From: Escherichia coli
GTDB taxonomy: Bacteria > Pseudomonadota > Gammaproteobacteria > Enterobacterales > Enterobacteriaceae
Direction: 5' to 3' (one strand)
Assembly: GCF_024223415.1 (NCBI RefSeq)
Contig: NZ_CP100500.1
Length of the DNA: 64,000 bases
The notes beneath the pieces were generated by a model. The model was not told the DNA's origin, searched no databases, and saw only the letters and a program-made list of their open reading frames with translations. Position 1 is the stretch's first letter. Every line of letters starts with the position of its first letter. Shown here one piece after another: positions 9,575 to 51,441 of this stretch. Both the position numbers and the translations under genes were made by a program.

Positions 9575-9952
9575 ATGAACAGTAAAGAAAATTTGCGCAG
9601 TAGATTTTTGCAACTAATGACAGAAAAAGTTAAATCAGCGCTACTTCCACTTATGGTGGATAATAACGAAGCAACGAGCAGCATCCTTGCAGACCCTTAC
9701 GGTAAACTCTCGCATAAAACGCTGGATATTATTATGAGTGCATTAACACCCCGTATGCTTCAACACCTGAAACAAGATATTAACGCATGGGTGAATGAAG
9801 AATTGAGCCCCCCCTGTTCATGGGACAGACATTATGCATGGCAGCAAAAAATGAGGATTTTCAATTCATTATCACTAAAGTTCAGAGAACCGAAACAGCG
9901 TCCCTTCCCTCTGGAATCAGACAAAAAACAACCTGATCCCACAGGCCCGTAA
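9575..9952 (+). CDS. Hypothetical protein (125 aa), opposite-strand moron between holin and endolysin
   Basis: ATG ORF in visibly AT-rich segment; TATAAT-like hexamer upstream (~9508); no homolog recognised. Confidence 0.5.
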   Translation: MNSKENLRSRFLQLMTEKVKSALLPLMVDNNEATSSILADPYGKLSHKTLDIIMSALTPRMLQHLKQDINAWVNEELSPPCSWDRHYAWQQKMRIFNSLSLKFREPKQRPFPLESDKKQPDPTGP

Positions 9953-10108: not shown

Positions 10109-10381
10109 TCATATTTCTTTTGGTGCCTTTTTCGCAATCTCAGCCACAGCATGTGCCGTAGCCGGAACATTACCGGCATTAGTTCGTTCCAGAATTTCGA
10201 GCAATATGCGGGTTCGTTTTTCCTGCTCCCGTTTGTTAAGGCGATAAGTAAGAACGCCAAGAATGATACTGAACGCCACGCCGATAATAAATCCCCAATC
10301 CTGCAGTGACAGGCTGGCAAAGAACGCAACAAGTCCTGCGCTGCCGTATGCAGCGTTACTGTATCGTTCGTCCATTCTCAT
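10109..10381 (-). CDS. Holin, pinholin-like (two TMDs, first SAR-like), dual-start MRM motif
   Basis: ATG at 10381 and 10375 (MRMDE); AAYGSAGLVAFFASLSL and WGFIIGVAFSIILGVLTY hydrophobic segments; immediately upstream of lysis genes. Confidence 0.75.
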   Translation of the reverse strand: MRMDERYSNAAYGSAGLVAFFASLSLQDWGFIIGVAFSIILGVLTYRLNKREQEKRTRILLEILERTNAGNVPATAHAVAEIAKKAPKEI

Positions 10382-10796
10382 AGTCCCTCACCTCCGCCAT
10401 CCGACATTACGGACGGCAGCAAGTCAGAATCTCGTTATAAAAAAGCCGCACGAAGAGGCTGTTTGTTCAGGTATTTTATCCAGTGCGCCGTAAAACCCCG
10501 ACCTTCAGGGTGTGGAGGATGTCAACATCAATAACTGACATTCTGCCCAAAGCTCCCGAAGATTCCCTTTGCACAATTTCACTGACCGGATCTCAGCACA
10601 AGCCACAGGGAATGGTCAGTGTGACGCTCTCTGTGGCCCCTCCTGAAAAGCCCTGTGGTTTAATCGCGACGGACCTGGCGCGGATATGAAGCAGGCCGTG
10701 AGCACGAGCCTGGAAATTTAGTGCCGACTACCGGAATTGAAGTGGTGGCCTGATGGTTACAACTAAACTGTTCTGCCGACTGAGGTAAGTCGGCAC

Positions 10797-10873
10797 TGGA
10801 CCGCCACCGGGGACTCGAACCTCGCACACTCAACTTAAAGGGTTGACGCTCTTTCCTGATGAGCTAGTGGCGG
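10797..10873 (-). tRNA. tRNA, identity uncertain (anticodon loop CCUUUAA reads UUU but has non-canonical C33; Lys- or Arg-like phage tRNA, possibly decayed)
   Basis: 77-nt cloverleaf: acceptor CCGCCAC/GTGGCGG, D-stem GCTC/GAGC, anticodon stem TCAAC/GTTGA, T-loop TTCGAGT, encoded CCA; 1 nt from neighbouring tRNA. Confidence 0.55.
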
Positions 10874-10874
10874 T

Positions 10875-10950
10875 TGGTGGCCCTTGCTGGATTTGAACCA
10901 GCGACCTGGCGATTATGAGTCGCTCGCTCTCACCACTGAGCTAAAGGGCC
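10875..10950 (-). tRNA. tRNA-Ile2-like (anticodon CAU; Met/Ile-lysidine type), phage-borne
   Basis: GGCCCTTTAGCTCAGTGGTGAGAGCGAGCGACTCATAATCGCCAGGTCGCTGGTTCAAATCCAGCAAGGGCCACCA closely resembles E. coli minor tRNA-Ile (CAU); between Q and lysis genes as in Stx-phage ileZ-argN-argO clusters. Confidence 0.8.
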
Positions 10951-11070
10951 GGGCGCAGGATAATAACGTTACGAAATCAATGTTGCAAGCATTCAAAAAT
11001 CACCTGGTTAAAAATCACCCTTAGCTCCTCCACCAGCGCATTCACCATGTCTATCCGAGATAAGTGGCAC

Positions 11071-11100
11071 AAAAAAACCCGCTTGTGGGCGGGTTTTGTT
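11071..11100 (-). terminator. Candidate tR-prime (Q-antiterminated late terminator); hairpin also terminator-like on plus strand
   Basis: Minus-strand CCCGCCCACAAGCGGG hairpin followed by UUUUUUU, ~60 nt downstream of Q stop. Confidence 0.55.
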
Positions 11101-11160
11101 TGCTTTTGCCATCACGTACAAAATCGGCAAAATATCAGATTTGCATGAAATATATGCCTT

Positions 11161-11850
11161 TCAATCTACTTTTGCAACACTTTGCTTTGAAAATGCCGCC
11201 TTTTGTTTTGAACGTGTTCTCATTACAAACAATAAAGCCTCACTATCCAGTCGGTGAAAAATGTGTTTCATTGCAACCCAGTGACGAGTAAATGTTTTGG
11301 ACCAGTTTTTAGTTGTCACTCCCGCCAGTAATGCCAGCTCCTGGTATTCATAACTTTCCCCACCAAAAAGTTCTGCTTTTACTGCCTGCGCCGCCAGCCA
11401 GATTAATTTTTTCAGGCGTTCCTGCGTTTTCCCTGCAATTTTTCTGGTACCTGATTGAGTATTAAATTCATTCCACGCCCACTGTGTTATCGCGATCTGA
11501 TATTCCCAACAAATACTCCCGCTGTAACTCCACAACAACCAGGCTTTATGATGTTCTTCAAGAGACAGAACAGCCCGCCGCCACGATGATGTCGAAAACT
11601 CAACCGGGCTGACCAGGGCAATTGATGAGCCTTTCGCCAGTGATTGTTTTCCCGGGATTGGTGGATTATCCCGCGTTATCATTTTTCCAGTCACTTCATC
11701 GCGGTACCGGATTTTTTTACGCCTGTAACGCCCTGTATCAAACATGGCATTCTCCTGCCAGGCCTCAAGCTGCCCTTTTGTTGATCCACTCAAATCGGCG
11801 GTGGCAATCATGAGTTGCTGACGAACAAACTGTAAATACTGGTTATTCAT
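11161..11850 (-). CDS. Late antiterminator Q (Phage_antitermQ-type, assigned mainly by position)
   Basis: ATG at 11850 overlaps rusA stop (ATGA); sits between rusA and tR-prime/tRNAs/lysis genes; family assignment by context and approximate recall. Confidence 0.6.
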   Translation of the reverse strand: MNNQYLQFVRQQLMIATADLSGSTKGQLEAWQENAMFDTGRYRRKKIRYRDEVTGKMITRDNPPIPGKQSLAKGSSIALVSPVEFSTSSWRRAVLSLEEHHKAWLLWSYSGSICWEYQIAITQWAWNEFNTQSGTRKIAGKTQERLKKLIWLAAQAVKAELFGGESYEYQELALLAGVTTKNWSKTFTRHWVAMKHIFHRLDSEALLFVMRTRSKQKAAFSKQSVAKVD

Positions 11851-12212
11851 GCGCACTCCAGTTCTGTGATTTTTATCCCCAACCGCCCACCAGGAACAAG
11901 CTGACCGCGCACAATATTAATTTCATCAAACTGCTCGTCGTCTATGAGCAGCCCAGCATGCGTCAGTGCATCCAGTGGTGCCTTCAGGATATTGTCCAGG
12001 TCACGACGGCGCTTATCCGGTGGCTCTGCAATAATTTTTATTGCCAGCCTTCCTGACAGGTTTAATTTCAGTCGCTGCTGGCGAACAATAAGCGCCACAT
12101 CACGGCGATAACGCTCACCGGCTTTTGATACAAAATATGTGCTGCCACGACGTCGCCAGTAGGTATTCACCGTCGGCGGGTAAGGCAAAACAAATTCTAT
12201 GCGTTCAGTCAT
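11847..12212 (-). CDS. rusA: Holliday junction resolvase RusA
   Basis: 121 aa; ERIEFVLPYPPTVNTYW...RDLDNILKAPLDAL RusA signature. Confidence 0.85.
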   Translation of the reverse strand: MTERIEFVLPYPPTVNTYWRRRGSTYFVSKAGERYRRDVALIVRQQRLKLNLSGRLAIKIIAEPPDKRRRDLDNILKAPLDALTHAGLLIDDEQFDEINIVRGQLVPGGRLGIKITELECA

Positions 12213-14270: not shown

Positions 14271-14426
14271 TTACTCCTCAGGTTCGTAAGCTGTGAAGAC
14301 AGCGACCTCCGTCTGGCCGGTTCGGATTCGTACCTCGCAGAGGTCTTTCCTCGTTACCAGTGCCGTCACAATGACGGTAATACAGATGACGATCAGGGCG
14401 ACTAACATCGCCTTTTGCTGCTTCAT
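14271..14426 (-). CDS. Hok/Gef-family type I toxin (HokD/RelF-like)
   Basis: 51 aa MKQQKAMLVALIVICITVIVTALVTRKDLCEVRIRTGQTEVAVFTAYEPEE matches Hok family; in-frame upstream ATG at 14483 also present. Confidence 0.8.
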   Translation of the reverse strand: MKQQKAMLVALIVICITVIVTALVTRKDLCEVRIRTGQTEVAVFTAYEPEE

Positions 14427-14637
14427 AGCCTGCTTCTCCTTGCCTTTCGGCACGTAAGAGGCTAACCTAGATTTGCCGTTCATAGATTGAGCCTCAGATT
14501 AATGTTAAGCGTCTTGCCGGACGCGTAATGTTAACTGGGGCTTTTCTCTATCTGCCTTTTGGGGTTCATGCCTGAGACAGATAGCCTCAAGCACCCGCTG
14601 CAATTCTACTTAACTCTCCTTTTCCCGCAAACCATTT
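14427..14637 (-). promoter_or_regulatory. hok mRNA leader; expected location of antisense Sok-like RNA (plus strand) and mok-like reading frame
   Basis: By analogy with hok/sok loci; GGCGAGGGA-TTTC-TCCCTCGCC hairpin just 3-prime of hok at 14233-14254; exact sok ends not determinable. Confidence 0.3.
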
Positions 14638-20675: not shown

Positions 20676-21484
20676 AACCAATTTCCTCTCGGGTAACAGA
20701 CCCCTCAGAGGATACCACCTCGCCTGACGTGGTTAAAAGCAGGCACACAACACGAAAGCGCACGGCGAGGTAGCTGGTTCATATATAGCCTGTCGTTAAA
20801 TTTTCGTCGACCGTGCGCTTCCGGTTGTGGCACTCCGCGAAATGGCGCGGCGGTAAGCATGGCGGGGTTCCCTTCCCCTTGAGGACACCGGGTTGTCAGG
20901 TTGACCATGCGCCTGAGTGACAACCCCGCTGCAACGCCCTCTGTTATCAATTTTCTGGTGACGTTTGGCGGTATCAGTTTTACTCCGTGACTGCTCTGCC
21001 GCCCTTTTTAAAGTGAATTTTGTGATGTGGTGAATGCGGCTCAGCGCACGCGGAACAGTTAAAACCAAAAACAGAGTTATGGGTGGATTCTCTGTATCCG
21101 GCGTTAATTGTTAACTGGTTAACGTCACCTGGAGGCACCTGGCACCGCATCAACAAAGTTCACTTCGGTGATGAAAGGTAAGAGAAAATGTTGAATGTAG
21201 CTATTGAAAACCAGTACGGGTGGAATTATAGTGCACCTGCACCTCATAAAACGGGTGCCGGGCGTGGAAACCCGAAAGTTACTCGAGCGCATAACCGCGC
21301 CGAAGCGGTTTTTTTATGCGTAATGCACAGCCACATTCAGATAATGGTGGGGCGTGCAGGGCAGCTGCAAGGCTGGCCGGGTTCTCGAGTGACCGGTATT
21401 TCCACCCCTGTACGTCTCGCCACCCTTATGGTCGTGGAAAGCCTCGGTGGTGAGTTAATTAACTTAACACTTGAGGATGCCATC

Positions 21485-51177: not shown

Positions 51178-51262
<85 letters not shown>

Positions 51263-51318
51263 TCACTTTTCAAAAGTCCCTGAACTCTCAAGCGAATCCG
51301 CAATTAAATATTCTGCCC

Positions 51319-51420
51319 ATGCGGGGAAGGATGAGAAGCTTCGACCAAGGTTCGACTCGAGCGCCAGCGAGAGAGCGTTGCCGCAGGCAACGACCCGAAG
51401 GGCGAAGCGCGCAGCGCTGA
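51319..51420 (+). CDS. tpr: Protamine-like protein Tpr (33 aa, Arg-rich) in tyrT 3-prime repeat region
   Basis: [33 protein letters not shown]; location downstream of tyrT. Confidence 0.45.
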
Positions 51421-51422
51421 GT

Positions 51423-51441
51423 AATCCTTCCCCCACCACCA
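51423..51441 (+). repeat. Repeat of tRNA-Tyr 3-prime end (AATCCTTCCCCCACCACCA)
   Basis: Identical to last 19 nt of the tRNA at 51244-51262. Confidence 0.6.

Follow-up and report, generated by a model that had tools for sequence, protein, structure and literature searches.

What are the three tRNA-sized units that stand back to back between the antiterminator gene Q and the lysis genes of a lambda-like prophage of Escherichia coli, and does the middle one, which bears the anticodon of a lysine tRNA, serve the phage that carries it? We addressed this question in a stretch of 64,000 nucleotides from contig NZ_CP100500.1 (NCBI RefSeq assembly GCF_024223415.1), hereafter the window, whose own positions are used throughout. 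As the initial annotation of the window had described, three tRNA-like units abut one another between Q and the holin-like gene, all on the minus strand: unit 1 at 10875-10950, unit 2 at 10797-10873 and unit 3 at 10719-10794. They are separated by spacers of 1 nucleotide (units 1 and 2) and 2 nucleotides (GT; units 2 and 3), and CCA is encoded in units 1 and 2. Judged by their sequences, unit 1 is ileZ, unit 2 belongs to the argN lineage and unit 3 comes from a captured copy of the host gene thrU, and we hold these evolutionary identities to be very likely. The best overall explanation would be a cassette of the lambdoid type with a functional ileZ, an anticodon-switched and nuclease-proof Lys tRNA in unit 2 and a dead thrU relic in unit 3; as a whole, we regard it as an evenly balanced proposition.

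Unit 1 is ileZ, a gene for a tRNA of the Ile2 type with anticodon CAU and an encoded CCA. ARAGORN calls a tRNA with anticodon CAT, the tRNA model of Rfam (RF00005, gathering cut-off 29 bits) scores 72.5 bits, and all 76 of 76 positions are identical to the annotated ileZ of Stx2a_F349; PGAP labels the identical sequence tRNA-Ile. The CAU anticodon sits on an Ile2-type rather than a Met body, and the pairs C4-G69 and C5-G68, which we take to be the determinants for TilS, are both present. The clean tRNA-Ile2-like gene that had been reported here is thus borne out. It is also the least variable unit of the array, with a nucleotide diversity (pi) of 0.0009. Unit 1 would be functional, with TilS converting C34 to lysidine so that the tRNA reads the rare codon AUA. 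In codon counts taken from the prophage of strain Ch1 rather than from the window, AUA is 2-3 times commoner in prophage than in host genes; ATA, AGA, AGG and CGG are 2-5-fold enriched and Lys codons only about 1.3-fold. Supplementing rare codons is thus a purpose that suits ileZ and the Arg units of such cassettes but does not explain unit 2.

Unit 2 is likewise recognized as a tRNA gene: ARAGORN calls tRNA-Lys (ttt), the Rfam score of 44.4 bits lies above the cut-off of 29, and the label given by RefSeq/PGAP is tRNA-Lys. Standard pairs fill 20 of the 21 positions of the cloverleaf, the sole non-pair being A51.C63 in the T stem (A52.C64 in linear numbering), and U8, G18G19, the TTCGA T-loop and the terminal CCA are all kept. 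The anticodon loop reads C32 C33 U34 U35 U36 A37 A38 (CCUUUAA); it departs from a canonical tRNA in having C instead of U at position 33, as do all Lys-type copies seen. The cloverleaf, the encoded CCA and the C33 loop had been noted before and are confirmed. To call only the first unit canonical, as was done there, does less than justice to unit 2, given that it clears the thresholds of ARAGORN, Rfam and PGAP.

The body of unit 2 does not match its anticodon. Identity to the host tRNA-Lys gene lysT is only 47/79 (59%), compared with 65/77 (84%) to argN with anticodon UCG, 69/77 (90%) to an Arg(UCU) allele of strain ECCNB12-2 and 61/77 to the chromosomal Arg(UCU) tRNAs of other gammaproteobacteria. 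When 100,044 species-representative genomes were scanned with a degenerate pattern of unit 2, the Lys allele was not found; the pattern proved too generic and returned mostly chromosomal Arg(UCU) tRNAs from many phyla, which again points to a scaffold of the Arg type. By these identities, the body of unit 2 is an Arg-type scaffold unrelated to host tRNA-Lys, and of the two readings offered at first, a Lys-like or a mutated Arg tRNA, the mutated Arg-type tRNA was well chosen. Relative to the Arg(UCU) alleles that share its TCAAC/GTTGA stem, the loop has changed from CUUCUAA to CCUUUAA. The anticodon stem itself (10829-10845, minus strand; 5' UCAAC / 3' GUUGA) resembles a strand-swapped version of the host tRNA-Lys stem (5' GUUGA / 3' UCAAU). 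This likeness may be a coincidence, and it could be of relevance to dimeric Toprim nucleases that read the stem.

Saks, Sampson and Abelson are said to have turned, in 1998, an E. coli tRNA-Arg(UCU) into a working tRNA-Thr(UGU) by an anticodon point mutation. As in that recruitment, the middle anticodon base has been switched on an Arg(UCU)-type scaffold within one family (UCU, UGU, UUU; NNU/ANN); unlike it, the switch in unit 2 is natural, leads to Lys, is accompanied by U33C and has a putative function. ArgRS recognizes its tRNAs by C35, whereas LysRS relies on U35 and the UUU anticodon. The UUU of unit 2, having replaced C35, would thus remove recognition by ArgRS and gain recognition by LysRS, and we read unit 2 as an anticodon-switched tRNA that is probably charged with lysine. 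That it would also work in translation seems to us, from its sequence, slightly short of an even chance.

What a tRNA-Lys(UUU) of foreign build might offer a phage is suggested by the host defenses that cut tRNAs. The host tRNA with this anticodon is the prime target of PARIS AriB (PMC11464382) and of PrrC (PMC2610378), and it is a substrate of P2-OLD, a classic anti-lambda system (PMC12445682). AriB cuts tRNA-Lys at U36AAUC|A41 (that is, U39-C40|A41), and the change U39A abolishes cleavage (PMC12409363, PMC11464382); P2-OLD requires CNG at nucleotides 28-30 and 40-42, as paired motifs in the anticodon stem (PMC12445682); and PrrC cuts 3' of U33 (PMC2610378). Lys(UUU) tRNAs encoded by phages rescue cells or phage infection from AriB and PrrC170, and the rescue tRNAs of phages that counter AriB, PrrC170 and P2-OLD comprise both Lys and Thr types (PMC12445682, PMC11555353). 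Unit 2 has the anticodon of the very tRNA that AriB and PrrC destroy. At the sites where these nucleases act, it reads U36AAGUU41, has CAA/UUG at positions 28-30/40-42 and carries C33 at the PrrC junction; it has neither the AriB site U39-C40|A41 nor the CNG motifs of P2-OLD. This makes unit 2 a plausible nuclease-insensitive Lys backup.

A parallel is provided by the tRNA-Lys(UUU) of phage T5, which neutralizes PARIS (PMC11464382, PMC12409363). Both tRNAs have the anticodon of the targeted host tRNA and altered nucleotides at positions 39-41 (UCA in host tRNA-Lys, ACC in T5, GUU in unit 2). The T5 tRNA has a Lys-type body and U33, whereas unit 2 has an Arg-type body, C33 and U73; resistance and rescue have been demonstrated for the former, whereas for unit 2 we infer them; and T5 is virulent, whereas the carrier of unit 2 is a temperate lambdoid prophage. 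By analogy, unit 2 would act as a nuclease-proof tRNA-Lys backup that allows lambda-like phages to finish late translation in hosts with P2- or P4-borne defenses. Judging from the sequence, an anti-defense role of some kind is a tentative suggestion on the unlikely side. In its full form, the proposal sees in unit 2 an adaptive tRNA-Lys(UUU), proof against nucleases and built on an Arg scaffold, which would evade AriB, P2-OLD and PrrC through its foreign body and C33; we consider this unlikely.

A number of observations weigh against a working, nuclease-proof tRNA-Lys. The modification t6A37 matters for decoding by tRNA-Lys(UUU), and LysRS prefers A73 as the discriminator base. Unit 2 has U73 at that place, an A.C mismatch in the T stem and, with C33, no canonical U-turn nucleotide. 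C33 is moreover an anti-determinant for the formation of t6A37 by the E. coli enzymes TsaBCDE, as tested on initiator tRNA with U33C (PMC8887486), and hypomodification of unit 2 is the probable consequence. Position 33 is still U in the PARIS-resistant tRNA-Lys of T5, which places C33 outside the known recipe for resistance; we accordingly rejected C33 as a general trait of resistant phage tRNA-Lys. The thrU copy captured next to unit 2 in related arrays is identical to the host tRNA that is sensitive to OLD and AriB, and in the experiments of Govande et al., host tRNA-ThrU protected little or not at all. Finally, the pairing of the stems does not help to decide. Of the pair cells across 43 alleles of the argN family, 96.3% hold standard pairs, and both sides have changed in four of the pairs, but we discounted these compensatory changes as a sign of selection on the Lys allele because an Arg(UCU) allele already carries the TCAAC/GTTGA stem. 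The stem changes thus predate the anticodon switch and are therefore silent on selection after it.

Several of these points are expected if unit 2 is a drifting passenger with little or no function, whose loop was damaged (U33C and C35U) and which spreads only through linkage to a strongly selected ileZ and its promoter. The C33, U73 and A.C mismatch of unit 2, together with the block that C33 puts on t6A37 formation by E. coli enzymes, agree with this account, and so does its diversity: pi is 0.022 for unit 2 and 0.0009 for ileZ in the same arrays, a difference of about 24-fold, and the value for unit 2 is on par with that of the promoter/leader region (0.0175). This 40-nucleotide region served as reference since mosaicism makes the flanking regions unusable as a neutral one. 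Two of the three major alleles of unit 2 have lesions (U8C, or a 1-nucleotide deletion in the D stem) and receive no tRNA call from PGAP. The argN slot is decay-prone in general, as no tRNA is called at the unit-2 position in 34 of the 104 ileZ-anchored arrays of the IMG/VR sample. C33 and UUU are fixed among the Lys-type copies, position 32 is variable, and no version of unit 2 with U33 was found in IMG/VR. This constancy counts in favor of a working unit 2, but all Lys-type copies may share one ancestor, in which case the fixation of C33 and UUU needs no selection. In addition, we observed that some argN-slot alleles in ileZ-anchored IMG/VR loci (L146 onward) are heavily scrambled while ileZ and argO are intact.

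Other findings are harder to reconcile with a mere passenger. The commonest allele of unit 2, which is that of the window, has an intact cloverleaf and all the nucleotides of the tertiary interactions, and the alleles at 100% and 98.7% receive the label tRNA-Lys from PGAP. Unit 2 is also very widespread: it is carried by 797 of 5,426 complete E. coli genomes (15%), and it occurs in at least 120 IMG/VR contigs and in GenBank records of phages. This distribution, with its PGAP label, disposes of the notion that unit 2 is a decay product private to this window. A second UUU anticodon arose independently in the neighboring thrU copy, by G35U (together with A26G), in one lineage represented by five loci (L008, L047, L111, L113 and L118). 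The arrays at these loci thus hold two Lys(UUU) genes, and in their unit 2 the substitution U8C is joined by a repaired pair in the T stem (A51-U63) and by G73. This second conversion hints at a demand for the UUU anticodon, and UUU is an exact match to the main target of PARIS and PrrC and to a substrate of P2-OLD. Weighing both sides, we consider the passenger account a strong rival, although we would not expect it to be correct. Literature searches on ileZ/argN and on lambdoid tRNA-Lys returned nothing relevant and, to judge from the literature that can be searched, the Lys/C33 variant of this known type of cassette has not been described before.

The combination of a Lys-like loop with a foreign stem admits a further explanation, in which unit 2 is a decoy that imitates the anticodon loop of tRNA-Lys without being cleavable and thereby titrates anticodon nucleases, PrrC among them. 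C33 would harm decoding but not necessarily binding, and one possibility considered by Belukhina et al. is that viral tRNAs and immune effectors form non-productive complexes. Such a role has no precedent backed by data, however. The phage tRNA-Thr6 failed to protect host tRNA-ThrU from depletion by P2-OLD (Govande et al.), and AriB seems to depend on contacts beyond the anticodon arm, which are absent from unit 2 (PMC12409363). We judge the decoy to be very improbable.

The third unit (10719-10794, minus strand) is the dead relic of a captured copy of host thrU, the gene for tRNA-Thr(UGU). It keeps the TGT triplet, its CCA has become CTA, and its acceptor strands GCCGACT/AGTCGGC are exactly those of thrU. 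The unit had been placed at 10721-10796 on the strength of a perfect pairing of GTGCCGA with TCGGCAC; the pairing is real, but the register was off by 2 nucleotides. Over the whole unit, 61 of 76 positions are identical to host thrU (15 substitutions), as opposed to 48 of 78 to argO. Non-standard pairs number 7 of 21 in its cloverleaf and 1 in that of thrU, so that six additional pairs are broken, and the energy of the cloverleaf is -8.2 kcal/mol, compared with -24.8 kcal/mol for thrU. Searched alone, the unit scores 19.8 bits with Rfam, below the cut-off of 29. The ARAGORN check that the initial annotation had proposed gives CAT for unit 1, Lys (ttt) for unit 2 and, at default settings, no call for unit 3, which is called only at a threshold of 80% and is then miscalled. 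Unit 3 is without tRNA function.

How the host gene came to be there can be read from related arrays. The commonest array around the Lys allele is ileZ-Lys-Thr(UGU)-Gly(UCC), found at 94 of 122 IMG/VR loci; there, the Thr and Gly genes match thrU and glyT of K-12 at 100% identity, tyrU and the spacers having been removed. In arrays of this type (e.g., that of strain CFS3313), ileZ and unit 2 are identical to those of the window; thrU and glyT are both intact there, whereas in the window the thrU copy has undergone 15 substitutions and no more than a half-gene relic is left of glyT. Since most arrays hold segments of mature length only, we considered an RNA-mediated retro-copy as the origin of the thrU and glyT copies. 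This was rejected, as two IMG/VR loci, L087 (at about 8025, minus orientation) and L088 (at about 3225), retain, after the thrU copy, the spacer TCAAGTCC of the host operon and then the 5' half of tyrU. The host operon thrU-tyrU-glyT was therefore captured at the DNA level.

An intermediate stage is preserved in strain M19 (locus L145, 3007-3160), where the thrU copy has just three substitutions (G24A, G42T and T43C), all of them common to the relic of the window. PGAP skips this thrU copy, while the glyT copy that follows, with two substitutions, is still annotated. The fully decayed module of the window occurs in 19 of the 5,426 E. coli genomes; the Lys allele lies upstream of it in 3 of the 19, and 15 of the other 16 are annotated with an Arg tRNA upstream, which carries UCU in the one genome examined. 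Beyond unit 3, a segment at 10675-10715 (minus strand) is tentatively a relic of the 3' half of glyT, by synteny with glyT in relatives: by eye, about 26 of the 41 aligned positions agree, a G-to-A change is common to it and the M19 copy, and in shuffle tests 247 of 1,000 shuffled sequences scored as high in local alignment (not significant) and 163 of 5,000 in global alignment (marginal). The locus is a clean decay series: the capture of the operon comes first, intact copies and an intermediate follow, and a dead relic stands at its end.

This series bears directly on the initial annotation, which had read the array as a partly decayed ileZ-argN-argO of the kind found in Stx phages. The slot is indeed the one in which those phages carry the three genes followed by the toxin: in Stx2a_F349, ileZ comes first and the cassette lies past Q and before the lysis genes, and the Stx2a phage has ileZ-argN-argO-stx2AB in the homologous position, whereas no stx genes follow the cassette of the window and no toxin gene is present there, as had been stated. 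The ileZ-argN-argO cassette of 933W-type phages was reportedly described by Plunkett and colleagues in 1999 and by Schmidt and colleagues in 1997. The window shares with the Stx cassette an identical ileZ, the same upstream promoter-like element, spacers of 1-2 nucleotides and encoded CCA; it differs in that unit 2, homologous to argN, has UUU and C33 in place of the Arg anticodon UCG, and in that the third unit is thrU-derived and dead where the Stx cassette has argO (Arg UCU). A degenerate argN in unit 2 and a degenerate argO in unit 3 would agree with the shared slot and with the argN lineage of unit 2, and argO and thrU are themselves 71% identical, so that unit 3 aligns loosely to argO. 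Alignment with the Stx genes, however, gives 76/76 for ileZ and 65/77 for argN but only 48/78 for argO, and it was on the comparison with 61/76 for thrU that we rejected a decayed argO. The TGT triplet and exact thrU acceptor strands of unit 3, the M19 intermediate, the intact thrU-glyT versions at the same position in relatives and the two loci that keep the host thrU-tyrU spacer all speak for thrU, and a decaying ileZ-argN-argO array is hardly credible.

Even a dead tRNA copy may be put to use. None of the 15 substitutions of unit 3 falls in positions 1-9 or 58-74, which comprise both acceptor strands and the 3' strand of the T stem (P=0.0008 for that post hoc region; P=0.03 for the acceptor stem alone), and unit 2 ends just 2 nucleotides before it. 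Unit 3 could have been kept as a processing signal, its acceptor/T minihelix directing RNase P to a cut 2 nucleotides past unit 2 and thereby freeing the 3' end of unit 2. The T5 record annotates tRNA-like stable RNAs of unassigned function inside the tRNA cluster of that phage; like unit 3, rna1, rna2 and rna3 of T5 are degenerate tRNA-sized units within such a cluster, although they accumulate as stable RNAs, whereas unit 3 is known from its sequence alone. Two of the substitutions, A17C and T20C (10775-10794), have turned the D-loop sequence AGTAGGT into AGTCGGC, a second copy of the 3' acceptor strand, possibly by quasi-palindrome correction rather than by two random hits. With the 5' acceptor strand, it forms a perfect 7-base-pair hairpin (GCCGACU/AGUCGGC), which rivals the acceptor stem and prevails in the predicted fold, and the T arm is lost through G53C. 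Rare (19 genomes) and with next to no variation, the relic gives no measure of selection, and recombination tracts could explain the intact ends equally well. A retained processing signal thus appears improbable, and we favor a relic that is simply dead.

The surroundings of the cassette are those of the late region of a lambdoid prophage, which adjoins ompW. The ompW neighborhood was judged from the prophage of strain Ch1, which is 96-99% similar to that of the window. The 501-base-pair cassette region (10600-11100) is identical in Ch1; we had to discard the assumption that the window equals strain Ch1 throughout, since beyond the cassette the 96-99% identity comes in blocks and some modules are replaced. 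Directly upstream of the cassette lies the late antiterminator gene Q (11161-11856, minus strand; match to the Pfam family Phage_antiter_Q, PF06323, at E=1.4e-90); in Ch1, the annotation names its product antitermination protein Q. Just past Q, a consensus scan identified a pR'-like promoter, TTGCAA-17-TATATT (11149-11177, minus strand), which would be active by the layout of lambdoid late operons. It is followed by a tR'-like intrinsic terminator (11068-11097, minus strand), read directly from the sequence as ACCCGC..GCGGGT with a run of seven T and with its hairpin taken from a scan; it has a weak, sub-threshold Rfam resemblance to the 3' ends of isrK/isrJ. The same kind of scan revealed a sigma-70-like promoter element, TTGCAA-17-TATTAT (10960-10988, minus strand), that ends about 10 nucleotides before ileZ. 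Both of its hexamers are retained in all five arrays compared, including that of ECCNB12-2, whose surroundings have diverged. We propose that the cassette would owe its transcription both to read-through from pR', dependent on Q, and to its own promoter-like element, which may allow expression independently of Q, possibly in the lysogen, and that RNase P would separate the units by cutting at each 5' end.

On the other side of the cassette, the first gene of the lysis region is a holin-like open reading frame (ORF) of 90 amino acids (10109-10381, minus strand; sub-threshold Pfam matches to PF16080, E=1.3e-4, and PF04971), with the lysozyme and Rz genes downstream. Between the holin-like and lysozyme genes, a 125-amino-acid ORF without a Pfam match lies on the opposite strand (9575-9952, plus strand), and its counterpart in Ch1 is annotated as a frameshifted pseudogene. 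Just beyond Rz, a prophage ORF of 126 amino acids (7495-7875, minus strand) combines a signal of the lipoprotein type (LSALAVGC) with a TonB C-terminal domain (PF03544, E=3.8e-13); it could be a moron for superinfection exclusion or receptor interference. In the early/immunity region, Rfam matches above threshold form a cluster of known prophage small RNAs: sok (14421-14596, minus strand) adjoining hokD, DicF (20953-21004, plus strand), isrK (21239-21315, plus strand) and the C4 antisense RNA (21340-21427, plus strand). The window also contains a single host tRNA-Tyr gene (51178-51262, plus strand) followed by one RtT element (51310-51441, plus strand). In K-12, the locus holds a tandem of tyrT and tyrV, and this duplication may have collapsed in the source strain.

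Recent work (2024-2025) has established that virulent phages escape tRNA-cutting defenses with variant tRNAs (PMC11464382, PMC12409363, PMC12445682). Natural lambdoid prophages carry Lys(UUU) and Thr(UGU) genes adjoining ileZ, and the Lys gene is built on an Arg scaffold and lacks the known cut sites. If the proposed function of unit 2 is true, it would be a ready-made natural test case for tRNA-based counter-defense in temperate phages and the temperate-phage counterpart of the anti-PARIS tRNA of T5; it would also document a change of tRNA identity in nature. If unit 2 is non-functional, the decay series would still show how phage tRNA cassettes turn over, and in either case the third unit is not to be read as argO. 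The cassette is mostly an ordinary one of a known kind, whose Lys unit might help phages to survive the defenses that cut tRNAs.

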